DNA from: Ginglymostoma cirratum | Lineage: Eukaryota | Direction of reading: 5' to 3' | DNA: 64,000 nt | Assembly (NCBI GenBank): GCA_024137785.1 | Contig: JAHRHZ010000289.1 | Span: forward strand, 35,942,767-36,006,766 | Shown: piece after piece, positions 11,717 to 49,100 of the stretch | Numbering within the stretch: the stretch's first letter is position 1 | Layout: each line of letters starts with the position of its first letter | The notes under the pieces: model-generated | Database searches by the model: none | What the model was told of the DNA's origin: nothing | The model's input: the letters and a program-made list of their open reading frames with translations, nothing else | Position numbers and translations under genes: made by a program

Positions 11717-12047
11717 TTGAGAGCTTACAGCCATGGCCTCAACATTGACTTCACCAGCTTCAAAATCCCTCTACCCCTAGCCTTATCCCATGTCCAGCCC
11801 ACCCAATCCTCCTCGCCTCCCTCACCTGATCTAACTTGTCTGTCTTCCTACTCACCTATCTGCTCCACCCTTGCCACAGACCAATCACAATAACCCCACC
11901 TGTATCCACCTATCGCCATCTCTCCTACCCTTCCCCCAGCCTGAATCCCTCTCCCTCTATTTATTTCTGGGCTCCCCTCTCCCTCCCCATCCTGATGAAG
12001 GACCTTCAGTCCAAAACATTGACTTTCCTGCTCCTCGGATGCTGTCC
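11717..12047 (+). mobile_element. Penelope-like element 3' end: GIY-YIG C-terminus remnant plus pLTR with decayed hammerhead
   Basis: Encodes HGLNIDFTSFKI, then a pyrimidine-rich UTR, then CTGATGA-A-GGAC(CTTCA)GTCC-AAAAC-ATT at 11992-12020. Confidence 0.8.
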
Positions 12048-13619
12048 AACCTCCCCACACCTATAGACCCCTGTAATCTCTTGCCTTGCCTCTCACAGCA
12101 GCCTAGATTATATTGCTTCTGGGACTGGAGATATATTCACTTTCAAGCCCAATAAAATCACTAATATGCCCTTCCTCGCAATGCTCAATGGTCTTATGAT
12201 GTGAGGCATCTGGTAGTTGAGGGTGGGTGGGGGGGACAGTGAATGACCGAAGCTTATTCCAAACTGTGGGAGTTGGGCTGCTGAGCTCACAGTCATTAAA
12301 AATGGAGCAAAGGTAGCTGAGTGCAAAAGTCTTAGAGGATTGGAGGGTTCATGGGAGTGAGGTGTTGTACAGATGGTAAAGATGACAGAGATCGATGGAG
12401 AATTAAATACAGCAAGTTAATTTTAAACTTAAAGCATTAAGAGATTGGGATACAAGGTAGCACTGAGGTTATAAAAACAAAAAATGCTCAAAATGTTCAG
12501 CAGATTACCTGTGGAGAAAGAAACAGAGTCAATGTCAGGTCAAAATGATCTTTCTTCAGCTTTGTTATTCAGAGACTCATATAATACACATCCAAATCGA
12601 ATAATTATTGTCTGCCAGTTCCATATATATAAGCTCTACAGCCCATCACCTAAATGCAATTCAACACCCAATTAACATTTTGCAATGTTGACAATTTTTG
12701 CTTCTATGTATTGAATCCTGCAGATTAGAAATGCCTGAAATCTTAACTTCTGGTTTGGACTGAGTTGGGCAGTTTCTAGAATGACTTAATCTCCTGTTGT
12801 TTTCATCACAAAGATAAAGGTGATGCAAAATAAGTTACAAGATGGAAGAACCAAAAATGAGCACTGTCCAGAAAGTAGAGAAGGCCAAAAGAGAGAGGTG
12901 GGCTTTCATACTTTTAAAAAATCTATCATCCACATTCTGCAGGTGTCATTGACTGGGCCAGAAGCCCTTGCAATGTTTATGTTCCTAAGTACATTTGAGA
13001 GAGTGGTGAGGTGTCATCTTGAACCACTGCATTTCTTGTGCTGTAGGTAGACACACAATGCCATTAAGGAGGGAGTTCCCAGGATTTTGACCTAGCAACA
13101 CTGAATGACTGGCAATTTATTTCCAAGTCAAGGATGGTGAATGGCGGGTGGAGGTATTTCCATGTATCTGCTGCTCTTGTCCTTCTCGATGGAAGTTGTT
13201 GAGGATTTGGAAGGTGCTGTCAAAGGAAGCTTAGTGAACTTCTGCAGTGCATCTTGGAAATGGTACGCTCTGCTGCTACTGAGCGCCTGTGGTGGAGGCA
13301 ATGGATGTTTGTAAAAATTGTGCCAATCAAGTGGGCTGCTTTGTCCTATACATTGTCAAGCTTCTTGAGAGTTGTTGGAGCTCCACTCATCCAGGCAGTA
13401 ATCCATCACACTCCTGATTTGTGTCTTGAGGATGGTGCACAAGCAATAAGGACTCAGGAACTGAGTTACTTACTGCAGGATACTGAGCCTCCAACCTGCT
13501 CTTCTAGCCATTGTATCTATATGGCTAGTCCAGTTTAGTTTCTAGTCAATGGAAATTCCAAGGATTCAGTGATGGTAATGCTTTGAAATTGCAAGGGGTA
13601 ATGATTCTATTTGCTCCTG

Positions 13620-13760
13620 TTGGAAAAGAGACAGAGAGGGATGTGAAAGGGGTAGGGAAGTTACATTACTGATTAAAGAGAATGTCACAGCTGCACTAAG
13701 AGCGGACATCTTGGAGGGCGCATCCCGCGAGGCCATATGGATAGAACTTAGGAACTTAGG
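13620..13760 (+). mobile_element. CR1 APE endonuclease fragment
   Basis: Translates to KRDREGCERGREVTLLIKENVTAALRADILEGASREAIWIELRN, resembling the RxDR..GGGVALLIK...EAIWVEL motif. Confidence 0.7.
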
Positions 13761-13817
13761 AAACATCACCTCCAGAACCCCATCTCTGGATTCAGCTCTG
13801 CTTCTGCCACTGCCAGG

Positions 13818-14190
13818 CTGACTTTCCCCAGTCCCATTCAGACTATCCTCAGTCCCACTCCAGCTGTTCACAGTCCTAATCTAACTGCCCTCAGTCCCAC
13901 TCTGATTGTCCTCAGTCCTGATCAGATTGTCCCCAGTCCCGCTCTGGCTGTCGTCAGTCCTACACTGACTGTCCTCAGTTCCACTCTGACTGTCCTCAGT
14001 CCCGCTCCAGCTGTAACGGTACTCAGTCTCCCTCTGACTGCCCTCAGTCCCACTCTGACTCTCCTCAGTCCTGATCTGACTGATCTCAATCCCACTCTAC
14101 TTGTCGTCAGTCCCACTCCAGCTGTAACTGTACTCAATCTCCCTTTAACTGTCCTCAGTCCCAATCTGACATTCTTTAATCCCAATCCCA
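13818..14190. repeat. Degenerate 21-bp minisatellite with 27-bp variant units
   Basis: Consensus CTGACTGTCCTCAGTCCCACT, about 17 units. The variant CCAGCTGTAAC.GTACTCA.TCTCCCT occurs at 14007 and 14118. Confidence 0.9.
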
Positions 14191-17100
14191 ATAGGAGAAT
14201 TGAATCATATTGACCCCCTGACCTAAAGGCAATGGTAGCATGATGGATATACTAGGCCATCACTTTGTGCATTATGTTTGAGTATAATTCTGTTGCTGTT
14301 GGCCCCCATTGCCTCATGGTTGCCCAGTCTTGGGTTGCTAGATCTCTTTGAGTCTGCTTCATTTGGTAGGGTGCTAATGTCACACAATGAGATGAAGGGT
14401 GACCTCAGCATGAAGACAGGGCTTTGTCTCCACAGGCCTGTGCAGTGGTCAATCTTACTGATACACTCATGGACAGATGCATTTGTGGCAGGCAGGCTGG
14501 TGAGCTTGAAGTCAAGTATATTATTCACTTTTGTTGGTTCCCTCACCACCTGCCGCAGACCCAGCCTGGCAGCATATCCTTTAAGATATGACCAGCTTGA
14601 TTAGTCAAGCTGTTGCTGATCAACTGTTGGTGACGGACATTGATGTCTCCTATCTAGTGTACATTCTGCGACCTTGCAATCTTCAGTAATTTTTCCAAAT
14701 ATTATTGAACATGGAGGAGTACTGACTCGTGAGCTGTGGAAGGCAGTGTTATGGTCATCAGCAAACAGCATTTTTTGCCCACATTTTGTGATAACATAGT
14801 GAAGACTCCCAGAGCAACTCCCTCCTGACTGTATACCACTGTCCCACCTCGGCTAGGTTTGTCCTGTCAGTGGGATCGGACATGACATCCATGGCATGGT
14901 TAGTGACGGTGGTGTCTGGGATATTGTCTGCCAGGAATGATTCCATGTGTATAACTATTTCAGGTGTCACTTGACTCATCTATGTAACAGTACTGCTAAT
15001 ATTTGCACAAGCCCCTCGATGTTAGTAAGGAGGACTTTATAGAGTCAACAGTGCTGATTTGGCTATTGTCATTTCCTGTGCCTAGGTTGATGTCAGGTAA
15101 TATGATCAGTTCTATTCCTTTTGTGAGACTTCTTTTGCAGTTTGTTACAATTCTATGGATTGATAGGCTCAAAGAGGTTTAAAAGAGCTTAGCCATCTAT
15201 TTGTCTATTGAAACATCTGAACCTTTGCTTAATTGATAATTTTGTCTGTCTGATCTCTATCAATTTCAAAATGTTTCTTGCACAAGTTAAAGGAAAGTTC
15301 AAGTGACTACAGTTTCATCTATTAAAAATTCAAAGGGCCTGAATAATTGACATCATTATTTCACTATTTCTTAACATAGTAGAAAGTTAGCACTGAATGA
15401 CAGTATTTCAAAAGTCTTTTTTTAACACACTGAACTGTCACTGCTAGGTTCATTACTTCTACGCAGCTTAGAGTAGGTGAATAGGAATGAAAATGCCATA
15501 GGCTATCATGTGGTCATGAGGGACCAGGTGAAGAGCCATATCCTGACATGGGTGACATAAAGAGGACCTTTTGATCTTACCTATCAAAAGTTTCCTAATG
15601 CAGATGATTGTTTATTACAAATCAAATCATGACTCCTTAAAAAACTGGCCTGAATTCATAGAAATTACAGAGAAGCTTTCTGCAATGGAGCTGGTCATGT
15701 TTAGGTTCCCATTTGTTGCCTTGCATCCTTAAAAGGTCTTACCAAAAATTCAAAACCCTAGTAACGTGGTCAGAGATCCTGCCTGCCATTTCTAAAGAGC
15801 TCTCCAGTTATTGTGACATGGTGAAAGTTCAGGCTAGTGTCCTTAAAACAGTGAAGGAATCTGTAAATGTGGATTTGAATGATTGCCAGAGAATGACAAA
15901 TGGGGAATCCAGTGATTGTGGATAGAGGAATGAAGAGAAAGGCAGGGTCCAAACAGTGAAAGTGGCATGCAAGGGCATTGAGATGAATATTACTCAGCAA
16001 AAGCAGGATTTCAAGGTGAGATCCAAAAACTAATGCTCTACATATGAAGAAATTGACAAGTAGGAGGAATAGGAGGTTAAGACCTAGCCAATGACTGATC
16101 ATTAGGGCTCTGGCTATCTGGGTGCATTGTGGTTTGTAAAGTCAAAACAGCAAGAGGAAAATTTGACAAATGGGATAATTAAAGGCCAGTATTATGACTG
16201 TCAGAGTAATGTCGGAGAAACATGAATAAAAAAAAATCTCTTGAAGAATCATATTGGACTTGGGAAATTAACTCCATTTCTCTCTCCACAGGTTTCCAGC
16301 ATCCTCAGCGTTTTGTTTTTATGAGTCAAATAGGGGTGGGTGGGTGCTGTCTCAGAGGTGGAAGAAAACAATCTTGGTTACAAATCAGACGTTATGGTGT
16401 CAAAATTTGAACGCTTTGCTTGTCCTCAGTGTCCCCGGGTTAAGAAGGGAAAATCAGCCAGATTCTGGCAGAAACCTGCAATTTAGTGATAGTCACCAGA
16501 TGTAGCTTAGTTGTGATTTGAATAGTGTACTGACACTCCTCACTTGGGTGCAAAAATGAGAAATAGAAACTTGATCAGGATACACTCAGATCTTTGATTC
16601 TTATGACACAGCGTTCCAACATTAAGCTTCAGGAGCAATGAAGAACGTACTGGAGGGAAAAGATGACCTGTGGTACAGCCATGTGAACATTAAAAGGAAT
16701 AGTCAGATGTTTCCCCCTGCTAATGATGATAAACTATATTCCCAGAGGCTGAATCTTGATCCTATTGATAATTAGTTATCCTTTATGTAAAGTTAATATT
16801 TCTGTCATACAGATGATCTAAGATAACCATTATTTTAAATACCTACTTACGTTTCTTAATTCCTGATGAGGGAGGAACATCGAATCGCAGCATTTAAAAA
16901 AAACTATTCCCTGACCAATGTAAGTGATAAATGTCAAAGTCTTTGAATAAATATATGACCACAAGACTGAATAATCTTTCATTTCTCCCAGTTGGGTTCC
17001 TTCCTCTTATGAAGATATTGTTCCATTCTAAGTAAGATATCCATTAATTCTTAAACAAGGGGCTATTTTTTGTGTGTTACTTTAACAATGAGAGTGGTGC

Positions 17101-18400
17101 ATTATTGGTGGCATAGACATGATTCCTTAAGCTTCATTCATCCCTCACTCACTGACTTTCAATATTTGTCTGATAATACCCAACACCAGACTGACACTTT
17201 CAATTTTAATCCTTTGCATTCATAGCAAAAAATTCTCTAGCACAGGAGAAACAAAACCAAGATTGTGCAGTTCATTTGATAGGTCAATGAGGATCAGTGC
17301 ACAGGTTTCAACTATGTAGAATCTGCATTCATGACTTAGGGAAAGACTCGGAGTAATGTATTTAAATTTGTTGACAAAGCTAGGAGGCAATGTAAGCTGC
17401 AAGGAGGACACAAAGATGCTGCAAAGAGATGAAGACAGGCTGATTAGGTTCAAAGTGACAGATAGAATATAAATGTGGGGATTTTGGAAAAGCATCACAT
17501 TTTTTTAAAAAATCATGAGACTTGTGAATATTGATTTTGAGAAAGACATGGATGTAGCCACACAAGAAGATTGTGGAAACTTGGTAGTTAGGTGAAATAT
17601 TGACAAGAGAGGGGATACAAAGATGAGTTTAACTGTGGCATCCTCCTGGATGGGGCAGAAATGGCAAATGATGACCCTTTAAAAGTAGAGGCTGATATGA
17701 TGTGGTGCCATACTTGTGGACTGGTAACATAACTTTTTGACATGAGTCAATAATTGCCTTTTTGTAAGATAAATGAGTTGACCAATATGCTAATACGGTA
17801 TGAGTGAGTTATCTCATCTTGAAACTGAGCAATATAGACCAAATATGTTGCAGCCTTGCTTTCTAGTCAGGGCTGTATATGTGGGTCTCATTTAAGGCCT
17901 GGTGCAATGACAACTACTGGCTTTAAAGCCTTTGGTCTAGGCCATGCTTGTTACTTCTGTTCACTGCTTAGTCATTTGTTTCTGCTTGACATTTAACAGC
18001 ATTAATCTCACTGAATCATACCATTGGAAACAAACTGAACTGGGCTACACTGTGAACTATGAGAGCAGGTCAGAATCTAGGAAATCTGCAGCAAGCAACT
18101 GCACGTTGTGTGCTATAATATTGTGCACTTGCCTGCATGAAGGCAGCTTTAATAAAGCTCAAGAGGTCCAAAATCATCCAGGACAATGCAGCTCATTCAA
18201 TCAGCGCCACTCCCTCCACCAACAGTGCACAGTGGCAGTAGATACACTGCAGTAACTCCTTACAAAGCTGCAACCGCTGCACTATCCTCACTAGGAAATA
18301 TATTTTTTTTGCTGTCAAGTCTTGGGATTCTGTTCCTAACAGTATTGTGGATGTACCTCTAACCCATCATCTTCAATGGTTCAAGCAGCCAGCTCATCAC

Positions 18401-18634
18401 TGTCGCATTATAACAAAGTTGGCCATGGGACCTCACGGAATATGAGTTTCCTCATTGGGGCCATTAATCCGGTCCAATCAGGGAGCCCTGGCTGACAGGT
18501 ATAAACAGGAGTGCCAGGGATTCTGTTCACTCTGAGAGCTGGCCATGAGGAAGCTGGATCAGTGTCAAGGACTCTCCATGTGTAAATAAAGTGGGTACTT
18601 GGTGACGGGATACTGGCCTCTTAGAGTCATTTCA
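18401..18634 (+). mobile_element. Solo LTR (probably Gypsy-type), 234 bp, inside a decayed LINE
   Basis: TG...CA ends, CCAAT 18474, TATAAA 18500, AATAAA 18585. Flanked by ATCAC/ACCAC, a 5-bp duplication with 1 mismatch. Confidence 0.75.
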
Positions 18635-20247
18635 ACCACCACATTTCTAAGGACAATCAGGCATGAGTAACAAATGATGGCCTAACAAAATAAGTAAAAT
18701 TTTTAAAATGCTTCATAATGTGCATTGGATGAGGAGAGGTTTAGATAGTTCCTTGCTGTATCCCTCTTGAATAATTGGATTGTGTTTTCTCTCCAGGTCT
18801 AATCATACAGGATGGACATTTGATTGAGGTGTAAGAAGACTGACAATGTGCATGCAACTGGTTTTCAGCACAAGCCTTGGCCTCAGGTTGTAAAATAAAT
18901 GGGATAAGGAAAAAGATTAGAAATGAGGTGTTTAAAATCTGAATTTCTAACCCCATTAGAGTTTAGTATGTTCCTTAGATTATGAAAATTAACGACAGAG
19001 GGGTCATTTACGGCAGCAGATATAGTGCCCCTTTCTGATGGCTATTCAGAAATGGAGACTGCACATATACAGTTATGGGATAGAATGGATTCAGCTCTGG
19101 TCTCATACATGACAAGAGAAAATGAAATAAAATAAGAGTAGGTAAAAGTGATACGGAGGGAGAGGGAAGGATGGAAAGAGAAAGGAATTTGAAAAGGTAG
19201 CAACATCCCATATATACAGCTGAAGTGCAGACTTAGCTGGCAGCTCACATGCAGTTTTACCACAGCATGACTGAACAGCCTTCAGCAAGGAGCGAAAGGT
19301 GAAAAAAAACAAAGAAAAGTGGAACAAAGACACACAAAACCAGGAATGATGGCAAAAATTGAGATAGTGTCACTGATCTGAGAGAATTACTGCACAAAAG
19401 GAATATTTTGCAATACAAAGAACAGAATTGCAAATAAATGAGGAAAATAGCAGGGAATTAATAAATTGAGCTGATCAACCAAACAGTCATGTGCAATGAC
19501 ATCATTATCTGCCTAGAAAAGATTCTTGTAAATAACACTGCCATGCTGCGTATGCCTCCTGCTAACTCAAAAGCATATGGTATGAAAACAAATACCCTGT
19601 TAATTCGTTATTTAGAACAGCAGTGTTTTGATCCAACAGATGGCATTCAGTGTGACTACTCATGAGAATGGAATTGTCCACCTGTAACCAAAAAATAACC
19701 AGTGCAGCGCAAATTAGGACAATTAACAGATTGGCTTCCTTGGGGCTAAAGATGGAAAATTTATGAACCTCTGTTTGACACACCATTTTCTGTAACTCAG
19801 TGTTCCACAGCCTGAATTATTTTGCTAAATCGAACTTTCTTCCCTGGAAGGCTTTACTTTGCAGTTCGAATTGTGTCACCGGTCTCAGACCTCATTCGAG
19901 ACAGCACATAACTCATTTAAAAGAAAAATGCCCGCTTGTTTCAACAGAAAGTAGGCCAAAACATTAATGTTTTCCAAAAGATCGACATGTTTCTTCAGGC
20001 CAAAGGGATCAAAGGGTATAGGGAGAAAACAGGAACAGCTCACTGAGTTAGATAATCAGGCATGATCATATTGAATGGCACAGCAAGCTCTCAGGGCTGA
20101 ATGGCCTACTCTTGCTCATATTTTCTATATTTCTATGTTTCTATGTGGTAAAATTCCTTGGAGATCCTTGATCCAATCTCAATCAAATTTGATTGGATGA
20201 CAGCTTGAATAAGGGATGATAGAACATAAGCTTTGGTGGGAGAAGGA

Positions 20248-21636
20248 TAGAAACGTAGAAGATAGAACAGGAGAAGGCCATTCGGCCCTTCAAGCCTGCT
20301 CCACCATTCATCATGTCATGGCTGATCGTCCAACTCAATAGCCTGATCCTGCTTTATCTTCATAACCTTTGATCCCATTCTCCCCAAGTGCTATATCTAG
20401 CAGGCTCACCACTCTTTGGATGAAGAAAAGTCTCTTCATCTCTATCCTGAATGGTCTACCCTGAATCCTCGGTCTGTGACCCCTGGTTCTGGACACATCT
20501 ACCATTGGGAACATCCTCCCTACATCTACCCTGTCTTGTCCTGTTAGAATTTTATAAGTTTCTATGAGATCCCCCCTCACTCATCTGAACTCCAGCAAAA
20601 ACAATCCTAACCTAGTCAATCTCTCCTCATACATCAGACCTGCCATCCCCAGAATCAGCCTGTAAACCTTTGCTGCACTCCCCCGAGAGCGACACCATCC
20701 TTCCTCAGAAAAGGAGACCAAAGGAGACAATATTCCAGGTGTGGTCTTACCAAGGCCCTGTACAACTGCAACAACACATCCCTGCTCCTGTGCTCAACAT
20801 TTCCCGCAATGACGGCCAACGTATCATTTGCCTTCTTTACTGCCTGCTGCACCTGCATGCTTACCTTCAGCGACCGGTGCACAAGGATGCCCAGATCCCG
20901 CTGCATGCTCCCCTCTCCCAATTTACAGCCATTCAGGTAGTAATCTGCCTTTTTTATTTGCTTCCAAAGTGAATAATCTCACATTTATCCAAATTATACT
21001 GCATCTGCCATTGATTTGCCCACTCACCCAACTGTCCAGGTCATGCTGAAGGATCTCTGCAACCTCGTCACAGCTCATCCTTCCACCCAACCTGGTATCA
21101 TGTGCAAACTTGGAGATGTTACATTTTGTTCCTTCATCCAAATCATTAATATGGGGTCCCAGCACCAAACCCTGTGGCACCCCCGAGTTATCACCTGCTA
21201 ATTTGTAAAGGACCCATTAATTCCTATTCTTTTGTTTCTTCTCTGCCAACCAGTTTTCTACCCATCTCAATATACTTTCCCCAATCACATGCGCTTTAAT
21301 CTTGCACAATAATCTTTTATGCAGGAGTTCTGTCAAACGCTTTCTGAAAGTCCAAATATACCACATCGACTAGCTCCGCCTTGTCAACTCTACTAGCTAC
21401 ATCTTCATTGAATTTCAACAGATTTATCAAACATGATTCCCCCTTCATAAATCCAGAAGCAGAGCCATTCAGGTAGTAGTCTGCCTTCTTGCTTTCATTT
21501 CCAAAATGAATAACCTCACATTTATCCAAATTATACTGCATCTGCCATTGATTTGCTCAGTCACCCAACCTGTCCAGATCATGCTTAAGGATCTCTGCAT
21601 TCTCATCACAGCTCACCCTCTCACCCAAGTTGGTAC
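20248..21636 (-). mobile_element. CR1 LINE, RT domain to 3' end, frameshifted
   Basis: Minus ORFs contain VDVVYLDFQKAFD, PQGLVLGP..INDLD..ISKFAHDT, LYRALVRPHLEY and RGDLIETYKI. Confidence 0.92.
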
Positions 21637-21696
21637 CTCTGCAGAAGCAGTGATAGAGTGAGGGAGAGATATCAAAGCGAAGATGATGGCACTTAC

Positions 21697-21933
21697 ACTG
21701 GCAGAATGGAGAAGGTCATTGACCTTAACCCTTCAGTGGTGTGCATTCCTCCTGTGAGCCGAAAGTTCTTTAAGCTGTGTAACATCCTGAGACCAGGCTT
21801 TCACAGTCTGGTGTCATAGATTTCATGTCTGGTCCTAGTCGGGGAAGAAGTACCTTGTGTATACTATCCCATTCAGGAGGACCTCCAAAACCCTGCCCAT
21901 AGAGCAGGGTGCTGATTTACCCCTGTCTGCCAT
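21697..21933 (-). pseudogene. Decayed Myb/SANT-like (trihelix) exon of a PIF/Harbinger-type transposon
   Basis: 79 codons from ATG to a GTAAGT donor with 4 stops: MADRGKSAPCSMGRVLEVLLNGIVYTRYFFPD*...HQTVKAWSQDVTQLKELSAHRRNAHH*RVKVNDLLHSAS. Confidence 0.65.
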
Positions 21934-22969: not shown

Positions 22970-23445
22970 TTTTTTTATTTATTCATTTTGTGGGCTGTGG
23001 GCATTGCTGTCTGGGCCAGCATTTATTGACCGTCCCTAGCTGCCCTTGAGAAGGTGGTGGTGAGCTGCTTCATTGAACCGCTGCAGTCGAACAGGTGTGG
23101 ATTTATCCACAATGCCATTAGGGAGAGAATTCCAGGATTTTGACCCAGGAACAGTGAAAGAGTGGTGATATACTCCCAAATCAGGATCGTCTGTGGCTTG
23201 GAGGGGAACTTGAAATGTGGTGGTGTTCCCAAATACCTACTAGTCTTATCGTTCGAGATGGAAGGGATTGTGGGTTTGGAAGGTGCTGTCTGATGATCTT
23301 TGGTAAATTTCTGCAGTGCATCTTGTACATAATACTCACTGCTGCTACTGAGCTTTGGTGTTGGAGGAAGTGGATACTTGTGGATGCAGTCCCAATCAAG
23401 TGGGCTGCTTTTTCCTGGATAGTGTCAAGCTTCTTGAATGTTGCT
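22970..23445 (-). mobile_element. L2/CR1-group LINE 3' end
   Basis: Minus ORF reads FKKLDTIQEKAAHLIG...YKMHCRNLPKIIRQHLPNP, with the same tail as 28200-28650. Confidence 0.8.
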
Positions 23446-24355: not shown

Positions 24356-24755
24356 NNNNNNNNNNNNNNNNNNNNNNNNNNNNNNNNNNNNNNNNNNNNN
24401 NNNNNNNNNNNNNNNNNNNNNNNNNNNNNNNNNNNNNNNNNNNNNNNNNNNNNNNNNNNNNNNNNNNNNNNNNNNNNNNNNNNNNNNNNNNNNNNNNNNN
24501 NNNNNNNNNNNNNNNNNNNNNNNNNNNNNNNNNNNNNNNNNNNNNNNNNNNNNNNNNNNNNNNNNNNNNNNNNNNNNNNNNNNNNNNNNNNNNNNNNNNN
24601 NNNNNNNNNNNNNNNNNNNNNNNNNNNNNNNNNNNNNNNNNNNNNNNNNNNNNNNNNNNNNNNNNNNNNNNNNNNNNNNNNNNNNNNNNNNNNNNNNNNN
24701 NNNNNNNNNNNNNNNNNNNNNNNNNNNNNNNNNNNNNNNNNNNNNNNNNNNNNNN
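24356..24755. other. Assembly gap (400 N)
   Basis: Run of N characters. Confidence 1.
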
Positions 24756-26490: not shown

Positions 26491-26559
26491 TTGCTAAACC
26501 CTAGAAACATCTCTCGCCCAATTTTTTAAAATTGCATCGCTCTTTTTGCTGCTATGCTT

Positions 26560-28650
26560 CCTTCCATCTCAGCGCCTTCAATGGGTTGCTACAGGCAATG
26601 ATCAAGTGATGATCTGCAAACGTGCGCAGTCAATGATAACCACAAATTGCAGTCCTATCACATCCAGTCGTGAATGGTGGTGAGCAATTATACATGTCAC
26701 TGGAGGAGGAGGCTCCACAAATATCTCCATCCTCAATGATGAAAGAGCCCAACGTATCAGTGCAAAAGACAAGGCTGGTGCATTTACAACAATGGATGAT
26801 CCATCTCAGCCTCTTCCAGTGGTCCCTAGCATCACAGTGAACAGTTTTCAGTCAGTTCGATTCATTCCGCATGATATCAAGAAATGGTTGGAGACATTGG
26901 ATGCTGCAAAGGCTATGGAGCCTGACAACATTCTAGCAATAGTACCAGAGGCCTGTGCTCCAGAACTTGCCGCTCCCCTAATCAAGTTCTTTCAGTACAG
27001 TTACAGCAATGGTATCTACCTGACAATATGGAAAATAACCCAGGTACACAAAAACAGGACAAATCCAACATGGGTAATTACCGCCCCATCAGTCTACTCT
27101 CGATCATCAGTGAAGGGATGGAAGGTGTCATCAGCAGCACTATTAAAAAAACACCTGCTCAGCAATAACTTGCTCATTGACACCCAGTTTGGGTTTCACC
27201 AAAGCTACTCAGCTCCTGACCTCATTACAGCTTTGGTTCAAACATGGACAAAAGAGCTGAATTCCAGAAGTGAAGAGGGAATGACAGCCCTTGACATCAA
27301 AGCTTCCTTTGACTGAGTGTGATATCAAAGAGCCCTAGCAAATATGGGCTCAATGGGTATCGGGGGCGAGCTCTCCATTAGTTGAAATCATAACTGGCAC
27401 ATAGGAAGATGGTTGTGGTTGTTGGAGGTCTGTCATCTCAGCTCCAGGATATCTTTGTAGGACATCAGGGTAGTATCCTAGCTCCTACCATTTTCAGCTG
27501 CTTCATTAATGACCTTCCCTCCATCATAAGATAAGAAGCAAAATGTTCGGCACCGTTTGCGACTCCTCAGATACCGAAGCAGTCCATGTTCAAATGTAAC
27601 AAGATCTGGACAATATCCAGATTTGGGCTGACAAGTGGCAAGTGACATTCGTGCCACACAAATGCCAGGCACAATCTTAACAGCACCTCTTTACACACAA
27701 CAATGTTACAATCACTGAATCCCCCGTTACCAATATCCTTGGGGTTACCATTGCCCAGAAATCCAACTGGACTCACCACATAAGTACAGTGGCTACAAGA
27801 ACAGGTCAGAGACTAGGAATACTGCGAAGAGTAACTCATCTCCTCATAGAATTATAGAATACCCCACAGTGCGGAAACAAGCCATTCAGCCCAACAGGTC
27901 CACACCGACCCTCCAAACAGCATCCCACCCAGAACCATCTCCCTACCCTATTCCTGTAACCCTGCATTTCCTGTGGCTAATGCACCTACGCATCCCTGAA
28001 CACTATGGGTTATTTAGCATTGCCAATCCACCCAACTGGCACATCTTTCGACTGTGGGAGGAAACCAGAGCACCTGGCGGAAACCCACCTCCTGACTCCC
28101 CAAAGCCCTGTCTACCATCTACGAGGCATAAGTCAGGAGTATGATAGAATACTCCTTGCTTGCCTGGATGAATGCAACTGTATCCCAGCACTCAAAAAGC
28201 TTTACACTATCCAGGCCAAAGCAGCCTGCTTGATTGGCACCACTTCCACTAGCATCCACTCCCTCCATTCCTAACACTCAGTAGCAGCAGTGTCTAGTAT
28301 CTACAAGAAGCACTGCAGAAATTCAGCCAAAATCCTTAGACTGTACCTTCCAAATCCATGACCACTTCCATCTAGAAGGACAGGGCCAGCAGATACATGG
28401 GAACACCACCACCTGCAATTTCCCCTCCAAGCTACTCACCATCCTGACTTGGAATTATATCTCGCTCCTTCACTGTCACTCATCAAAATACTGGAATTCT
28501 GGAATTCCCTCCATAAGGGCATTGTGGGTCTACCTGAAGCATGCCGATTGAGAAGTCAGCTCGCTACCACCTTCTCAAGGGCAAGGGCAACTGGGGCTGG
28601 GCAATAAATGCTGGCCAGCCAGTGATGCCCACAGCCCATGAATGAATAAA
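26560..28650 (+). mobile_element. L2/CR1-group LINE, RT to 3' end, decayed
   Basis: ORF 26792-27316 reads KAMEPDNI...QFGFHQ...ALDIKASFD. Downstream is QGSILAPTIFSCFINDLP, and the tail is CCCATGAATGAATAAAA. Confidence 0.9.
27845..28085 (-). mobile_element. 5'-truncated HE1 SINE inserted in the LINE
   Basis: HE1 tail and V-domain, flanked by CA(T/C)CTCCT at 27837-27844 and 28086-28093. The LINE sequence resumes after it. Confidence 0.8.
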
Positions 28651-38354: not shown

Positions 38355-39150
38355 AAAGACCCTGACAACATTCCGGCAATAGTATTAACAATGTATTCTA
38401 GAACTTGCCTCACCCCTAAGCAATTCAAATTCAGCTATATCACTGGCACCTACCCGACAAGGTGGAAAATTGCCTAGGCACGCACTGTACACAAAAAAGA
38501 CAGCACAAATCCAACCTGACCAATTACCACTCCACCATTTTGCTTTCAATCCACAGTAAAGTGATGGAAGGACTTATCAACAGTGCTATTGAGCAGCACA
38601 TGCTTAACAATAACTTCAATTTGTGTTCTGCCACAACCACCCATCGCCTGGTCTCACCACAGCCTTGGTTCAAACATGAATGAAAGAGCTTAACTCAAGA
38701 AGAAAGGTGAGAGTGACTGCCCTTGATACTAGGGCTGCATTTTGCCAATGGTGGTATCAAGGAATCCCAGCAGAATTAGTGCCAATTTGAATTGGGGAAA
38801 CCACACTCTGCTGGCTTTAATCATGCCTAGCACAAAGGAAATTGGTTATGGATTTCAAACATCCATCATCTCAGCTCCAGCACCTCTCTGCAGGACATAC
38901 TCAAGAGTAGTGTCCTTGGTCCAACCATCTTCAGCTGTTGCATCAATAAACTTCCCTTCATTATAAGGTCAGAAACAGGAACGTTCACTGATGATGGCAT
39001 AATATTGAACAATATTTGTGATCGCTCAAATACTGAAACAGTCCATGTGCAAATGCGGCAAAACCTGGGCAATATTTAAGTTTGCGCTGCCAAGTGGTGT
39101 GAAAAGCTCATGCCACGCAAGTGCCAGGCAATGACCGTTTTCAATGAGAG
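38355..39150 (+). mobile_element. Older copy of the L2/CR1-group LINE, RT region
   Basis: Colinear with ~26920-27670 (SKVMEGLINSAIEQH; ALD...FCQ). Interrupted by a CR1 at 39151. Confidence 0.75.
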
Positions 39151-39745
39151 CATAGGAGTTGGGAGGTCATGTTGCAGCTGTACAGGAAATTGATTAGGCT
39201 GCTTTTGGAATATTGCATTCAATCTGGCCTCCCTGCTATAGGAAAGATGTTGTTAAAGTTACAAGGGTTCAGAAAAGATTCACAAGGATGCTGCCAGGTT
39301 GGGGGGTTTGAGCTAAAGGGAGAGGCTGAATAGCTCGGGGCTATTTTCCCTGCAGCGTCGGAGGCTAAGGGGTGACCTCATAAAAGTTGATAAGATCATG
39401 ATAGGCATAGATACAGTGAATAGTCAAAGACCTTTTCCCCTACATAGGGGAGTCGAAAACTAGAGGGCATGGGTTAAAGGTGAGAGCGGATAGATTTAAA
39501 AGGGACTTAAGGGGCAACTTTTTCACGTAGAGGGTGTTGCATGTATGGAATGAACTGCTGGAGGAAATGATGGAGGCTGGTACAATTACAACAGTCAAAA
39601 GGCATCTGGATGGGTGTATGAACAAGAAGGGTTTAGAGGGATATGGGCCAAACGCTGGCAAATGGGATTAGATTAGTTTAGGATAGCTGGTCGGCATGGA
39701 CATGGTGGACCGAAGGGTTTATTTCTGTACTGTACATCTCTATAA
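39151..39745 (+). mobile_element. CR1 LINE 3' part
   Basis: Closely homologous to 50190-50790. Confidence 0.85.
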
Positions 39746-40039
39746 TTTAACTATTACCCCTGAACATTGAATGGTATTATCATCACTGAATCCACATTAG
39801 TGACATTTTACGGCCATCACCATTATCCAAATTTATTGCGCAGCTGTGGATTACATGTTGAAACAAATTATTGTAAATATAATTTATTGCCCATTCCTGT
39901 CACTAAAACCTCTTTTGTATGCCTTCCTCTCTTCACTGCAACATAGACAGCTGTGTCTTTAGACACCTGGGGTAGAGTTATCCTGGTCTGAATAAGGGTG
40001 ACTGAGAGTGGGCAACTAAGAGAAATTCTTGGTCAGTGT

Positions 40040-40248
40040 TAACAAGGTGTGGGGCTGGATGAACACAGCAGGCCAAGCAGCTTCATAGGAGCCGGAAAGC
40101 TTGAAAATGGTTTTCTGATGAAGGGTCTAGGCCCGAAATGTCAAGCTTTCCTGCTCCTATGATGCTGCTTGGCCTGCTGTGTTCATCCAGCCCCACACCT
40201 TGTTATCTCGGATTCTCCAGCATCTGCAGTACCTTTTATCTCTGATAC
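40040..40248. mobile_element. Inverted PLE pLTR insertion with hammerhead core
   Basis: Inverted arms. CTGATGA-A-GGGTCTAGGCCC-GAAAT-GTC at 40115-40142. Flanked by AATTCTTGGTCAGTGT at 40024-40039 and 40249-40264. Confidence 0.85.
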
Positions 40249-40502
40249 AATTCTTGGTCAGTGTGTTGATTTCATAGAATTCCTGCAGTGTGGAGACTGG
40301 TCCTTCATCTGCTGTCCCCATGATGATTGCCACGAAGGCAGTAGGAGAGGGTAAGAGTCAAATGGCCTGGACAGTAATCCTGCCCACAGAAACAATCAGG
40401 CCAATTAAAGAATTCTTTTAGACCCTGACATTCTTTCCAAAGTTTTCGCAGGGGCATTTATTTAATACAGACCAACCAGCTCAAAGGTAGTGAGAATAGG
40501 GT

Positions 40503-40690
40503 CATAGAATCATAGAATCCCTACAGCATGGAGGCAGGCCATTCAGCCCAATGAGTCCACATCAACCCTCCAAAGAGCATCCCACCCTGACCCATACCCC
40601 TGCTCTATCCCTTTCACCCTGCATTTCCTAAGGCTAACCCATCTAGCCTGCACATCTCTGGGAAATTTAACATGGCCAATCCACTTACTT
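40503..40690 (-). mobile_element. HE1 SINE 3' part
   Basis: CATAGAATCATAGAATCCCTACAG tail and HE1 body. Confidence 0.75.
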
Positions 40691-42907
40691 TGACTGGAGA
40701 ATGCAACTTATAAGTGAAGAGGTTCAGTGGAGTGGAGTGAGCCAACCCCATTAAAAAGAAGTAAAAAAAAGTTTATAAATAGTCACATTCTCATTCTTTC
40801 TCGAGTTTCACATCACCATCTGCCTTCTGAAATATGAAGAATCAGCATGGTTAATTTTTCCTACTTTGAAAATTGCTGACCAAACAGAAGCCACAGCAGT
40901 AGTCACTGAAGAGAGTGAGAAGGTGCCCTGTCTGGAGAAGGGTCTAGCCCTGAAACATCAGCCTTCCTGCTCCTCTGATGCTGCGTGGCCTGCTGTGTTC
41001 ATCCAGCTGTACGCCTTGTTATTTCTGTTTTTCCAAATGCCCACTTCTGCTCCTTCCATCCCCACCACGATTTGATGAGAAGACTCAACACTGACTGAGT
41101 TCACACCTTTCCTTCAGTAATGAGCTTCTACTTCCTGTCAAAGAGGGTTCAGAATCCAAAAAAAAACTCTCTTCCCGATTCAGCTCTTCACTGTGAAAAT
41201 CTGTCCCCTAGTCTCAACACATGAAGAATCATTCTTAAACTCCTCTCCCCCTTTGCTTTTAAAATCTACTTTCAGATCTTTAAATCTGCCCCTCAACGAA
41301 GCTTTTAGTCACCCCATAGATTACTTCTCCTTTAGCTCAACATTTATACTTTCCTTACACATTTGTTGAATGCATTGGAACATTTTCCCAAATTCAGTCT
41401 TTGTCACAATGGCAATGTGAATAATTTTAGGTATCTACCTTCAAAAGGGCACTACTGCATTATTGGGAGAAGTGGCAAGTCTTAAGCCTGGGTTGTCTTG
41501 GGGAAGGAGGAGTGAAAAAAAACCATCAAATTGTGTTTGGTTGTGTTGAAGGTGACATGCCAACCCTTAGTATGGCCGGTGGAGGTAACTAAACTAGGTA
41601 CTTGCCTCAGACAGAACCATCCCAGGTGTAACAGGTGCGGAGAGCGGACTTCTAGATAAAGCAAGTAATATTAAATCAAGCTAAATTCTTTACAAAGGAG
41701 CTGGATAAACATCTGTTAGAGAACAAGATTGAAATATATAAGGATGAAATTAGACAACGTTGGCTGGAAATTAAATGCTGAATGAACCTTGCCAGTATGT
41801 GCAGCACGTGAAATCTACTATGAATGAATCTACTATACTGTAAGACTAGATTAATAATGTGACTTTTTCATGTGAAATATTTTGGGTGACATGCTTGAAC
41901 GTTGCTGGGATTTCTTTATTCATTCATGAAACGTGAGCATCGCTGACTAGGCCAGCATTTATTGCCCATCTCTAATTGCCCAAAAGGTGGTGGTGGTGAA
42001 CCACCTTGCTGAACCATCGCAGTACATGTGATGATGGAAGGACACCCATCACACTCTTCAGTGATGGGGGCACTGAATTTTTAGAGTGATGGTCAGGTCC
42101 TGGTACAGTGATCTGCAGGAGTCAAAATATGAGATACTTGCACAGAGTACCCAAGGTCCTGCGTCCATTGTAGTTATATCAAGTACCAGGGTAAGCATTG
42201 GTCAGTGGTACACCCAGGCTATTGATGGTGGGTCATTCGATGATACAATACTGTTGGGCATCAAGGAGAGGTGGTTAGATTCTCTCTTGTTGGAGAAGAT
42301 CATATTGGACATTTGTAGTGTGTGAATGATACATCTACTTATCCACCTGAATCTGTCTGTCATTTAGATGCTGTAGTCAGTCTCATAATTCCTGGAATAG
42401 GTAAATGGGAATGTTGAAATGTGTCAGTCTTTATACTTTGGATCTCTGTCCAGTGTCTCATGTTGAAAATATTGTTTGTGAGTATGTGAAATGTGAGATT
42501 GGGAAAGTGCAGAGGGAAATCTGCATAAAGATTTTGCTCTTTTCCCATATTTAACAGGTTACACCACATTTGCTGTGACATCATGTAGTAATAGCAGTTC
42601 CAGGTAAATTAGTCAAATGAAAATGATCTGTTGATATGCTGTGATGTTCTGCAATTTAAGGTACTGTATTGAAATTAGTAAAATGAAATATCAGATGAAC
42701 GTCTGCATTGCAAAGTGTGTTCTGGAAATCGAAACCCAATTCTAAAGTAGCATTGTGAATCTCTCCCTTCTTAAGCTTACTGTTCTTTACCAGACCAGTT
42801 AGTTGCTAAACTTCTTTAAATTGACCAGGAACTCCTGTTGGATGAGCCTCTCCCTATGTTTTAAACCTGATATATCTGTTTTCTGTGGTTTAGCTGGCAG
42901 GCTGCAA

Positions 42908-42927
42908 GAACATGTGCATACATGTCT
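42908..42927. promoter_or_regulatory. Candidate p53/p63 response element
   Basis: GAACATGTGC-ATACATGTCT: two RRRCWWGYYY half-sites, zero spacer, 18/20 match, both cores CATG. Confidence 0.4.
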
Positions 42928-43249
42928 TCAGCAACTAAAAAGTACAGAGGGTGGAGCTGTATTGCTGCAACTATTCAAGTCTACATCGGCGCAGTACGGA
43001 AGAAAATTGTCAGTCACCTCAGAAAGTTCTCTGTCTAATTCTAACGAGAGGAAGGATGATTATCATTAATAAAGCAACGAAATGAGAAAGGAGATGATAA
43101 CCAAGGTAAAAATTAACATTTAGGAATGAGATACAATAAAAGTGCTCATTAGAGAGGCATAGCAAACATATTTAACAATGAGATAAAATAATGAACTTGC
43201 CATAAAGTAAACTTGGTAACAATTGGAAAAAGGAAAATAAACGTTCAAT

Positions 43250-43510
43250 GAAATGGTCTTTCACGATGTCAGGACATTTCAAAATGCTTTTCAGTAGATC
43301 TTGCAATGAGATGGTGACGGCTTCTGTTTTAGTGAAGTGAGTTGAGGGATAAATATCAGCCAGGGCACAGCAGAGTGTCCAGGGAACTTTTGAATTCACT
43401 AGTGAGAGAGGACAGAGCTTTGATTTAAAATCTAATCCTAAAGATGATACCTCTGATAAAGTAGCATTCCCTCACACTGAAAGTATTAACTTAGGTTGGA
43501 TGTTAATGTC
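43250..43510 (-). mobile_element. Decayed DeuSINE/SacSINE1-like SINE
   Basis: GTTGAGGGATAAATATCAGCCAGGGCAC is the antisense of the Deu-domain region seen at 55070-55505. Confidence 0.6.
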
Positions 43511-44848
43511 TCTGGATTTAAACTAAGAAGGAATCTTCAAGAAGGACTCAGATGTAGTTCTTAAGGTTAAAGAAACAAAGGGTACAGGGTGAAAGTAGGA
43601 GTGAGGTACTGAGTAGAATGATTAACCATGAGCATATTAAATTGCTGAATAGATTTGAAGGACCAAATAGCCTACTCCTATTTTCTATGCTTCTATGACT
43701 CCAAAACCTGCTAACTCAGAAGTGAAAGTGCTGCCACTGATCCTAGGTTGATAATGAGTACAGTTATATTTCTATAGCACCTTACCAAGGTATGGAATGC
43801 TGACACTCAAGACATATAGACCATCCATATCATTGAAACCAAAACATATGAAGCAATATCACACGGCAACAATTGGGATGAAAAGTCTTAGGGCCTAAAG
43901 AAAAGAACTGCTTGTTTTAAGTTGAGGCTTACAGGGCAGCGATGTTCTGCCTGATTTGAGAGCTCTTGCTTTCGCACATATTAATGATACTGGATTCTCT
44001 AAACGGCCAATGTAGAACAGAATTCTAGAGGTCAAAGGGTTTCATGTTCCAGCCCTGGTTTGTGTTGAGGTAGATTATCTCAGCAGGGGTAATAGTAGTC
44101 CATGCTGCAATTAGATCAAAGTTGTTGAGCTAGGGATAGTGGTGGCATGGAGAAGGAACATTAACTATGGGTTCCTTTCCTGATTGTTAATTTCAACTGG
44201 AAGATGTTTATACACAGATATTGAATGAGGCCCATATAAAATTAGTCTGTGATGACTTCACAGTGGAAAAACCTGCTACCACTCACCGCTAGGGTTACCT
44301 TAGGAGTGACTGCCTGAGTGCAGTTGGCTCCCATGGGAATGTATCTGAGCTTGAGTTGACACCATTATCAAATCAGGAAAGAAAACTTTGAGAGGCAAAG
44401 ATTAACCCCACTGCCTTAGAGCTCAGCTAAAGCAGAGAAAGTGAGAATTTTCAAATGTTTTGCCTACTCCTGGCATTTAACAAATTACAGGAAATCCAAT
44501 TTTAGTAGCATATTAAAAGTATTATTTAAATGTTTGTTTCCTCAAATCCTATCCTACTGTCACCCGAATCGTGTTCTTGTAGAGGTGAGCAGTTTTGAAC
44601 AGTATAACAGTGGTACAAAGAGTAAGGATTTGGGAGTTGTGGTTAGATAGTGAGTCACCCAGCTCAGTCAGGGGAGTGTCCACAACAATTAACTGTTTGT
44701 TAGCAATGCACATGATTACCTGTTCTTTTTGGCAGGAACCATGGTATCTTCCCAAATGACCGCTCCTCGACTGTTGTGTATTTACCACCTCTACCTGTAT
44801 GTGGTACTGGATAAACTGCCCTGCACAGTTCTTAACAGTTGCCTGGGC

Positions 44849-45430
44849 ATGACTGTAAGGGAAATTTTAGTGCACCTGAAGGCCGTGATGAATGGGATGT
44901 CACTCAGGCGGGATGTCTTCATCCCCCAGGGCCAATAGTGGAGGCTGCGACACCAGAACATTGCCAGCAGGGTCTGAGGTAGCCACCTGGCTTAAAGCAG
45001 TCTCTACAATCTGGTGGAATCCAGTGTACAAAAACGGTCAATGACCTTCCCCATTCTACCGTCTTCTCTTCAATTACTCACACGCACACTGCCTCTGCTA
45101 CCGCACTCACCACCCACCAAGGACTATGTTCTATCACTCTAACTATTGCCTATATAATGTCTTGCCTCACTCACTGGCCCTCACCTCAACCTGCAGCACC
45201 ACTAACACTGCATGCCCTCTGTTGCTGCCGACTTACCCTCTGAGGACATCTCCCCATCTATACCAAAAGTAACAGATAAGCCACCCACTTTCATTTCCCT
45301 TAAAACCTGCCTTTCTTCCATTCCATGGGGGAAACAGCCCACAACAGGGCAGAAAGCATCAAGACGAGCGTTGGGCTGCCTGACATTCGCTCCACGCCCC
45401 CTTAAGTGGAGAGCATCCTGACTCTGGCCC
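44849..45430 (+). pseudogene. Decayed two-exon Myb/SANT-like gene of a PIF/Harbinger-type transposon
   Basis: With frameshifts: LKAVMNGMSLRRDVFIPQGQ...LPAGSEVATWLKAVSTIWWN..QCTKTVNDL (to ~45060). After a pyrimidine tract: ETAHNRAESIKTSVGLPDIRSTPP*VESILTLA (~45328-45430). Confidence 0.65.
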
Positions 45431-47189
45431 CTCCAAGCAGCTGGTTGACTGTGGCCACAGGACTCATATTGGAGGCTGCCCTTGACTTATTGTTACAAGC
45501 CCCTAACCGAAGGTTATCCTCCTGAGGACTGCTGACGTCCATGGCTAGCTTCCTGGCTTAGTGTCTGTGCTAATCAGCACCGCAGTGCAGCAGTACTGTG
45601 AGCCTGGTATCCCTGGCTGGTGGGTAAAAGCTCAGTAATGCGAGGCAAAGCAGCGATACTGTGAGCATCCAGGGAAGTTCAGAGTATGAGTGCATGTTAT
45701 GACAGCAAGCAAAAAGCCTGTAGGTGCAGCCTGGTCCAGTCTATGAGATGAGTGCATGTTCCTGAGTGCCCAGTGGCCTTGCTGCAGTGTTACAATGAGA
45801 GTTGTCAGTAAAGCCAAGGTACAGCATTGAAGTTCAAAAGCTTCATGTCAGTGGATTGGAGATGTGCCATGAGGGTTCTTACGGACTGGCACATGACAAT
45901 TTTGTGGTGATGGGGCAGTTGTGTCTGGTGCCCATACAGCATGCCCTGAGATGTTGGTGGCCAGTGTGTAATATAAAAGGTTCTCTGGTCAACCTGAAGT
46001 TGTTAGGTACAGGTCTGACTTCCATGTTGAGAATTCTCAATGATAGGAAGCTGCTTCTTAATGAGATGAGGTGCATTTAACCACCTATAGTCCCCTTAAT
46101 TGGCAAGTCACGGCTAGCTAGTGAGACACATGCCTTACTGCTTGGCAAATGCAATAAGTTGCTTCCAATGTCAAGATAGGGGTCTCCGGACTTCTTGCCC
46201 ATTTCCGCCACAAATTTTGGCAAAGCCCACTTTGCTCATGCCTCTATAAGATTCATGCATATTTCTGAGGATCTTACAGATGTACAGATACATCTGCTCC
46301 CCCTGAAAGGGAGAGAATTCCTTGTTTCCAACCACAAGTTGTGTACCACTTAAGTAAAATGGATGGGTCATTGTAACATGAACATTAACCCTTTGTGAGT
46401 CATTACCTTATACTGCACAGCTATGAAGGATTTATTGATTATTTTATTGTATTCTACATCTTAGTGCGATGGCCTGCCCAAGTGTGAAGGCTAGGTTCAC
46501 AATAAATGCTTGCCTGAACCTCAGTCAGAGTGGGATTTACCACCTCTTCTTTTGCTTCTCCAGTGGACATCACAGGAAAGGAAAGACTTGCTCTTGGTTA
46601 CCATCAACCCCAGTTCGAAAACCCAATTAATAATAAATAAGTTACAGCATGTTGTACGTAACAAATGAGGACCGTTATGGCCCCTCCTAGGATAAAATAA
46701 GCATCACTGTTATGAAACAAAGGGTGACATTGGCTACTATTGGTCTGCTGGCACAAAGCCAGGCAAAACAAGAGCGCCAGGACCATTTCGAAATTGGCTA
46801 AGTTCAATGGTTTCCATTTAGATCCATCAGGGCGTGGGCACTGACCAGGCAGCTTAGAACTGAAGTCAAAGTTAATTTGGGGTTGTGACTCTGATATAAA
46901 GGGAAGTGATCAAGAAGGGGCAAGCGGGAACTGGCAATGTTACCTGGCATTGCTTTGGAGCCTGCAGAATCCTCATTCTGACCCCCCATTCAAGGTATTT
47001 AAGCCACTGCCAGACAATGTTCCCATCTCCTGACCCAAAGACCACCACTACCTCCCGTCTGAACAACTGCGAATTCCAGCATTGTTTGTAAATCTCCGAT
47101 ACTTTTCTGACCTGCTCTTTGTCAGTGTTTGCTCGCTTTTTCCTGTTCAAAGTCGGCCCTCTCAGGACAGCCTAGGTAGTGAACATTTT

Positions 47190-48262
47190 CTAGCTTTTCA
47201 AATGATATTCGCACAGAAGCTGAGCTCCAGATTATTGCCAACCCTTCTTCCAAATCATATGAGAAAATTAGTCTTTGATTAAACACTAAGGTAATCTTCC
47301 AACCAGCTCCCACTGCGCAACATCAGTACCTGTCAATTAAGATCAACAATGACATTCTGGAAAATATGAACCACATTCCATATTTTTGGAGTCCCCTCAC
47401 AATGAAGGCAGACGATACTGAAGACCATCATCATTGCCTCCCATATGCTAGCTCAGCCTATAGCTCAGTGAGGAAAATTAAGATTTGAGAACAGTAACTT
47501 CAAATTTGAGAAGGGGATCATGGTTTACCAGACAGCAGTGATCCCCACGCATCTATGGAGACTTAGATGATGTAAAGCAGGCTCCTCAAAACACATAACA
47601 TTATTTCATTAATGGTGCCTCTAAGCAGTGCAGCCACTAGGAAGCTCCATGCACGTTGATCAGCTTGGTGGGCTTCTGCACACAGACCTCAGAGGTCCAC
47701 ATCATGGAAAATGTAAGTTGGAGAGAATATTGCAATAGAATCTTTGCAAAACACTAAAAATGTATGAATGCAGGAAAGGCAATACAGTGCTAGTAAACCA
47801 ATATGCCTAGTACTGAAATAACAAATCACTCAAAAACAACTATATTTAGCAATAAATGACAATCAGGTCCAGACAGCAGACTCTGAAAACAACTGGTCTA
47901 CGCTGAAATTGGTTTTGGTAGGAGACTGCATGGAGGACAGGAAATCCTCAAAGCATTTGAGAAGAGGTCAAACATAACCATCTAATCATGGGAAACCTTG
48001 ACTTATGATGGACCAAAATAGAGAAAGTGCATTTGGAAAAGCACTGAGCATATCATGATACTTTGCCAGGAATGTGCAAAGGCTAAGCCAAGGCTTTAAA
48101 TAGAGCACACAAAACTTCTAATTCCTCATCTATCCAATCCTTCAATATCCACCTACTCCATACATGCCAACAGATTGCACATTGGAATTATCAGCCATCT
48201 CACAACTCATCAAACTGGAGTGGAAGCAAGTTTTCCGCAATCCTGAGGGACTGCCTAAGAAT
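47190..48262 (+). mobile_element. Decayed RTE-clade LINE
   Basis: TEAELQIIAN...TKVIFQPAP in the RT domain, and a 3' HIGIISHLTTH motif like that at 7135-7345. Confidence 0.7.
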
Positions 48263-48870
48263 TCCAATCTTGGAGAAGTTTAGCTATGTCCCTTTCTATG
48301 TTCATCACATACACATATGCACACATACCGACACGTCTAGAAATCAGAAGGAACAGGAGCAGATATTATTCCATAAAGCAAGAAGCAAATAGTTGTTCCA
48401 TTTTTCTTAGACATCCCTAACTTAAATCACAGTAGTGGAGCACTGATAAAGGACCAAATCCAATCTTAGTTGCAGGGTTCAAGGACACACTTGGATAATG
48501 AGCTATCATCATTTCAGATAAGAAATGGTTAGAAAACAAAACATTTTGAAATAGTGTCAACATTCACACAAATGTTGTAACTTATCTTGTAGAATTTTAT
48601 CACATTTACTAAATTGGATACGATGATTTTCATCCAATATCCAAAGAATGAATTAAAAAGAAAAAAATCGGAGTGTGCATTCCCAATACAGGCAATATAG
48701 TGTCACTTTTAAAATAGCTGAACAGAAAATTTCTCTTGGTTAGAGCTGTTGCTTATTTCATTGTCAAAATAGCCAACCTCACAATCAAGAACAAGATGAT
48801 TTGAGAATTCTTTTACTAATGACATAAGATAACCAGAACATGGAATTAGAGAAATGAAGTTTCACTCAGT

Positions 48871-49100
48871 GGGAAACAAAAACAAATTTGCTTGGAAAGC
48901 TCAGCAGATCTGCCAGCACCTGTGAAGAAAAAAAATCAGAGTTAACGTTTTGGATCCAGTGACCCTTCCTGTTCTGAGGAAGGGTCACCGGACCCAAAAC
49001 GTTAACTCTGATATTTTTGTTCACAGATGCTGCCAGACCTGCTGAGCTTTTCCAGCAGCTATGTTTTTGTTCCTGATTTACAGCATCTGCAGTTCTTTTG
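48871..49100. mobile_element. Inverted PLE-terminus insertion, family 2, with hammerhead core
   Basis: Inverted arms centred ~48970. CTGAGGA-A-GGGTC(ACCG)GACCC-AAAAC-GTT at 48974-49003. Flanked by GTTTCACTCAGT at 48859-48870 and 49101-49112. Confidence 0.8.

Follow-up and report, generated by a model that had tools for sequence, protein, structure and literature searches.

Minimal type I hammerhead motifs of Penelope-like elements in Ginglymostoma cirratum: conservation of the fold across five related families and decay of inserted copies

Results

Hammerhead copies in the window

The 64,000-nucleotide stretch of Ginglymostoma cirratum DNA analysed here (GCA_024137785.1, contig JAHRHZ010000289.1, forward-strand positions 35,942,767 to 36,006,766; below, the window) carries remnants of Penelope-like elements with short hammerhead motifs. 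An initial annotation had proposed that stem II of these motifs covaries between repeat families around a fixed core, implying selection on the RNA fold. As judged from sequence, the motifs are real; they represent the minimal type I hammerhead of Penelope-like elements, a class that is largely known. We compared five related families (F1 to F5, or nine groups when the five F1 subfamilies are counted separately), whose fold has probably been kept by selection in active parent elements.

The F3 motif at 11992..12020 (+), running from C3 to H17, lies in a Penelope-like 3' remnant (11716..12046, +) that is 82% alike to a longer natural copy and has a TATA-like word about 30 nt ahead of stem I. 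It reads CUGAUGA, an extra A, GGAC/GUCC around a 5-nt loop, and AAAAC, and is decayed, with both G12 and G16.2 changed to A and a stem I of 2 bp. The GGAC/GUCC letters, taken in the initial annotation as one of the family states, are present, but they are a private mutation of this one copy, since none of its 28 closest relatives has them and 19 of the 28 have GGGU. The F2 motif at 48974..49003 (+) has the letters reported for it, i.e. CUGAGGA, an extra A and GGGUC/GACCC; it belongs to a short solo copy (48971..49105, +) that begins 3 nt before C3 and extends through the tail, next to an inverted, 5'-truncated partner (48875..48970, -). Its 3' core strand also reads AAAAC (G12 to A), so that the copies cited at 11992 and 48974 have both lost G12. 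The F2 copy at 57575..57696 (-) has the AGUU flank from which pairing with AACU had been proposed for a family-2 stem I; such flanks can pair, but stem II is deleted from this copy and its hammerhead is lost.

Three copies belong to F4. That at 59538..59659 (-) has its motif at 59657-59626, with GAAUC/GACUU and a change in the A9 region; that at 5786..5910 (-) is 5'-truncated and left with the 3' strand GACUC and the tail; the third (6218..6269, +) is a heavily decayed remnant with a short inverted remnant ahead of it, AAGUC/GACUU at 6241-6256 and no core.

The remaining motifs are of F1. The one at 4629..4656 (-), from the youngest subfamily, is the sole window copy in which stem II, a 4-bp stem I and the full set of 11 core positions are all preserved. 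Those at 40115..40142 (+), which has an inverted remnant upstream, and 62538..62565 (-) have intact cores with stem I reduced to 3 bp and 2 bp, respectively. The others are decayed: 40932..40959 (+); 51225..51252 (-) and 61088..61115 (-), both with G12 to A; 51874..51901 (+), with G5 to A; and 60763..60790 (-) and 61324..61351 (+), both with A9 to G. The motifs at 61088..61115 and 61324..61351 are the left and right arms of an inverted pair, and upstream of that at 51252 a Penelope-like open reading frame (ORF) C-terminal end is recognisable by tblastn (51554..51640, -; 86% identical to the intact L302 ORF). Of the nine F1 motifs in the window, eight have all four stem II positions paired, in agreement with the GGGU/GCCC stem assigned to this family. 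A fixed core, by comparison, holds for the commonest letters of the nine groups and not for the copies: all 11 positions are kept in 3 of 12 window motifs, and together with a 4-bp stem I in 1 of 12, the copy at 4656. A run of 400 N (24356-24755) removes the 5' part of a further F1 copy. F1 flanks, among them 51252-51285 (-), have a UUCAGAA word about 25 nt upstream whose complementarity to the beginning of the core might allow it to sequester the core in read-through transcripts; the word is not in F3 or F5.

Recognition and abundance of the motif

The genome comprises 4.36 Gb in 289 contigs. Our unbiased sample consists of 1,024,875 readable bases (of 1,464,000, the remainder being N) at sites picked blind to the motif, with the window included; targeted loci, which skew towards their queries, were added to it. 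Copies were found with profiles restricted to the 3' part, and hence independent of stem II, which gave 291 copies in the unbiased sample, 24 of them in the window. Their density is about 280 per Mb, or by extrapolation about 1 million copies genome-wide. The exact core with the extra base and a stem of at least 4 bp matched 48 times in 629,754 readable bases, compared with 0 times in each of five dinucleotide shuffles.

CpG decay aside, CUGANGA, GAAA and UH are the commonest core letters in all nine groups; the extra position between 9 and 10.1 is A in all of them, and 10.1-11.1 is G-C, or G-U after CpG decay. Stem III is absent, with a palindromic 15.2-16.2 of AC-GU in the commonest letters or their CpG-decayed forms. 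The motif agrees with the published consensus of CUGANGAH, a G..C stem II, GAAAN, a palindrome and NUH (PMC4209133). An Rfam scan of the window gave no hammerhead family match at E values up to 1. Its microRNA matches are false, being caused by inverted pairs of element ends, which form long hairpins at 61104-61335 and 3969-4073; these hairpins are a possible source of double-stranded RNA.

Pairing and covariation in stems I and II

Stem II is GGGU/RCCC with a 4-nt loop in F1, GGGU/GCCC with a UUCR loop in F3, GGGU/ACCC with a 3-nt loop in F5, GGGUC/GACCC in F2, and GAGUC/GACUY with a 6-nt loop in F4. CpG decay aside, pairs 1 and 3 are constant across the five families, and pair 4 alternates between U-A and U-G. 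Pair 2 is G-C in 84/104 copies of the 15-nt class and 157/176 of the 13-nt class, and A-U in 17/22 F4 copies (5/6 in the unbiased set); the GAGUC/GACUC deduced in the initial annotation from degenerate copies is therefore the stem of a real family, although it is whole in none of the three window copies. This pair, swapped two-sidedly in F4, is the sole such event in stem II among the five families. The difference between GGGU/GCCC and GGGUC/GACCC consists of a wobble and a longer stem, with no two-sided swap. A-U at pair 3 occurs in 4/330 copies, compared with 1.5 expected and with one row misparsed; if this state marks a subfamily at all, it is a minor one, with two F2 copies (L088 7902 and L261 983), both reading GGAUC/GAUCY, as possible members.

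In all nine groups the commonest letters leave every stem II pair intact, despite several loop indels (3 to 6 nt); 3' flank divergence over the tree is about 1 change per site. Among 36 natural copies, 34 of them distinct, chosen as typical at 4 per group, stem II has 95.6% of its cells paired, and stem I is 83.8% paired. Pair 1 of stem I, U-A in the other groups, is C-G in both F3 and F5, requiring two events on a roughly supported flank tree; because the labels of F3, F5 and the F1 subfamilies were assigned from 3' letters, only the 5' letter of this pair is independent. Pair 3 in F1 went from G-C through a U-C mismatch to U-G. Stem I has 4 bp in F2, F3, F4, F5 and the youngest F1 subfamily.

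Across the 36 copies, two-sided change occurs in 3/8 pairs, one in stem II and two in stem I, a number equalled by 227/500 shuffles. The covariation score was above that of all shuffles, but kinship alone can produce such an excess, as the tool itself warns. Within classes, association between stem II columns showed no clear excess at paired over unpaired columns; pair 2 within the 15-nt class gave p = 0.006-0.02, and a neighbouring unpaired combination gave the same.

The carrier elements

Natural copies include an uninterrupted 850-aa frame with RVT_1 (PF00078) and GIY-YIG (PF01541) domains above the Pfam cut-offs and, in intact frames, a C-x4-C-x2-C linker. The stop codon precedes the motif by about 260 nt. 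Same-strand ORF ends are found upstream of 46/133 F1, 22/38 F3 and 16/31 F5 copies, and of 13/103 F2 copies, at least 1 of these 13 belonging to a neighbouring F1 copy. Copies have two 3' ends, near +93 and +130, about 35 nt apart; inverted 5'-truncated partners, pseudo-long terminal repeats (pseudo-LTRs) and a 30-40-bp tail are also present in these elements. The inverted partners and the paired 3' ends agree with the published organisation of Penelope-like elements (PMC8557442). Nearly identical intact frames at several loci (L301-L304) suggest that the youngest subfamily was active recently.

Insertion into their own kind is seen at two loci (L307 and L311), where the ORF of full-length elements is interrupted by short solo hammerhead copies from the same family and where one full-length copy lies inside an F2 copy. 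A sixth, unrelated hammerhead family occurs at L191-L215 (and at L034, L037 and L055), in which stem II has 6 bp (GUCACC/GGUGAC), the extra base is U, stem I is weak and a TATAAA word lies about 55 nt upstream of C3; adjacent fragments appear to resemble Poseidon-type Penelope proteins.

Where copies start

Leaving aside 17 F1 copies and 1 F2 copy that touch N or an edge, 33/91 F1 and 34/57 F2 copies have their 5' ends 0-8 nt before C3, compared with 3 F1 and 1 F2 in the next 51 nt upstream (-59..-9). There is no excess of 5' ends within 2 nt of the cleavage site (4/91 F1 and 2/57 F2), and in the sixth family the copies (7 rows) are too few to read a start. Among seven loci with the N-terminal part of the ORF, the whole 5' end is visible in two; both of these full-length copies start 3 nt before C3 and extend through the tail into the frame, the long reading beginning at +166. 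In a youngest-family leader (L307 2493-2330, -), short upstream frames precede the long frame at +166, one of 14 aa from an AUG within the hammerhead core and another of 39 aa.

Upstream of 3' copies in F1, F3 and F5, a TATA-like word lies at -31 from the A of stem I, and 7/11 F2 flanks have one 28-31 nt upstream. The initiator-like word YYANWY holds the A of stem I in 60/62 F1, 24/28 F3, 19/24 F5 and 8/11 F2 flanks; both words are so called by comparison with the TATA and initiator consensus. An upstream exon before the solo copies was considered and rejected, the recurring letters having been traced to inverted partners or to the query. A G-quadruplex stop as the source of the 5' peak is likewise rejected by reasoning, F2 being without C-runs yet having the stronger peak.

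Decay of inserted copies

In 81 unbiased F1 copies, changes at non-CpG core positions amount to 0.044 per site, compared with 0.045 in low-variation flank columns. All 11 core positions are kept in 41/81 F1 and 22/46 F2 copies, and the fixed core is thus a property of the parents, not of the copies. G12, the general base of the hammerhead (PMC6155905), is altered in 21% of F1 and 35% of F2 copies. In inserted copies the core is not clearly protected, and decay is about neutral.

Other features of the window

A degenerate tandem repeat at 13750-14210, with a unit of about 21 nt, contains CTGAGGA words unrelated to hammerheads. An open frame of 210 aa at 26684-27316 appears to resemble a LINE reverse-transcriptase fragment.

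Discussion

The overall results indicate, with a probability that we put at about 0.85, that five related Penelope-like families of G. cirratum carry minimal type I hammerheads in their terminal repeats, that the fold is likely kept by selection in active parents, and that the inserted copies, mostly broken, likely decay neutrally. The conservation of core and stem II across the nine groups supports selection on the fold in the active parents; the compensatory evidence, on which the initial annotation had relied, is thin.

With respect to function, we tentatively propose, from the positions of copy ends and upstream words, that transcription by RNA polymerase II begins with the first A of stem I, downstream of the TATA-like box in the upstream repeat, and that the hammerhead would therefore be the 5' tip of the element RNA, with the 5' strand of stem I serving as the initiator. 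Reverse transcription would be primed inside the leader, 95 or 130 nt downstream, copying uncut RNA, and such internal priming could have given rise to the many 100-135-nt solo copies and, on this reading, to about 1 million solo hammerhead copies. Cleavage, if any, would require either a second copy, with the palindromic ACGU replacing stem III, or an element protein; it would remove about 30 capped nucleotides, and so might decap the element's own message as a form of negative feedback, and would have no role as an insertion step. Consistent with parts of this proposal, for the anole element uncut RNA is reported to be the substrate, initiation to be internal, and cleavage to be protein-dependent and dispensable (PMC11167929).

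The position of the hammerhead could matter, in that a start at stem I would make its role testable: if true, the targets of the ribozyme would be the cap and translation and not the processing of RNA to unit length. The very young intact family, with its stem I variants, provides ready natural material for such a test.

Several observations weigh against these readings. Stem I is broken, with only 2-3 contiguous pairs, in four of the five F1 subfamilies, which spread nonetheless, and in young F1 copies of the youngest subfamily the core is predicted to pair with the GUC strand in place of stem I formation. No ORF homology was found upstream of F4 copies (0/22), i.e. in the family with the sole stem II swap, so its link to Penelope rests on the shared 3' flank. 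The flank tree is only roughly supported, its bootstrap being unsettled. In 46 F2 copies the core changes less than the flank (0.039 per site, compared with 0.074), although the core rate is biased low, these copies having been partly selected by their core. As for the start site, RNA reads gave no pile-up of starts or ends anywhere; one poly(A) run was apparently unstranded and mirrors the genomic copy structure, and the other gave 16 and 3 reads, such that the RNA reads are evidence neither way. The Drosophila Penelope promoter is TATA-less and internal (PMC2377424), and a TATA-driven start is thus no general rule.

The main rival to a transcription start at stem I is a splice acceptor; that the 5' pile-up reflects splicing of this kind, or reverse transcriptase halting at the stem I base, is possible, though we would not call it probable. 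A pyrimidine run and CAG occur at that place in F2, F3 and F5, and helix I is where an intron ends in D. virilis (PMC4209133). The same peak is, however, present in F1, which has no AG there, no shared upstream exon is seen ahead of short copies, and the TATA-like and initiator-like spacing is consistent in four families.

Somewhat less likely, in our view, is that the motif acts mainly as a protein-binding or promoter element in which self-cleavage has lapsed, at least in family 1. Such a role would fit with the weak stem I of the abundant F1 subfamilies, with the lack of copies that start at the cleavage site and with the finding that catalytic mutants leave insertion in vitro unaffected in the anole element (PMC11167929). 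It does not readily explain why the catalytic positions, the extra A and G10.1-C11.1 are all fixed across families, why pair 1 of stem I remained a pair while changing between U-A and C-G, or why a 4-bp stem I is back in the youngest subfamily.

It is unlikely that the stem II covariation reflects neutral drift only, with family structure inflating the counts. The two clean swaps, G-C to A-U and U-A to C-G, are both double transitions, and so would keep a pair automatically; the frequency with which shuffles equal the observed number of two-sided pairs, and the private nature of the 11992 example, also favour drift. Drift accounts for the swap but not for the conservation, i.e. for nine groups without a broken stem II pair through loop indels and extensive flank change. 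The density of copies and the occurrence of many of them in poly(A) RNA might suggest that the host has kept them as working ribozymes, but this is very improbable given that the F1 core decays like its flank and that G12 and the full core are so often lost.

With regard to known systems, the motifs are like the minimal hammerheads of metazoan Penelope pseudo-LTRs (Cervera and De la Pena 2014, PMC4209133) in having CUGANGA, one extra base, G10.1-C11.1, GAAAC-GUH, a palindromic centre, no stem III and a short stem I, and likewise in forming several consensus families per genome with compensatory changes and in occurring mostly as solo truncated copies and inverted pairs. The covariation itself therefore adds little, being a weak repeat of that 2014 result. 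Unlike most of the published examples, stem II here is shorter (4-5 bp), and the density is far above the 4,000-9,000 per genome given for coelacanth and frog, although the search methods differ. The searchable part of the supplement to that work, which excludes file 1, contains no cartilaginous fish ('shark' 0, 'Callorhinchus' 0), and a 2026 preprint counts hammerhead retrozymes in one. Our literature search, which left most subscription papers and some supplements outside its reach, yielded neither a description of such motifs in sharks nor a report that puts the start site at stem I.

The carriers resemble the Neptune clade (PMC8557442) in having a reverse transcriptase followed by a C-terminal GIY-YIG domain with a CX2-5CxxC linker, in their inverted truncated copies and in the 30-40-bp tail; by the linker motif they are putative members of this clade. 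In the same source the role of Penelope hammerheads is called unclear. The copies are also like animal non-LTR retrozymes (bioRxiv 10.64898/2026.07.22.740005) in being short, non-coding, hammerhead-bearing derivatives of Penelope repeats; those are defined as tandem arrays, whereas those of G. cirratum are scattered as solo or inverted element ends, with no tandem array of hammerhead monomers in the window, to which the search for arrays was confined. A parallel is seen with Poseidon PAc of the green anole (Frangieh et al. 2024, PMC11167929), in which the hammerhead also lies at the junction of repeat and ORF, and which likewise has two ends about 35 nt apart and none at the cleavage site. The available parts of that report do not mention full-length copies starting at stem I, and the PAc ORF begins in stem II, unlike that of the G. 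cirratum elements, which begins 166 nt after C3, behind short upstream frames.

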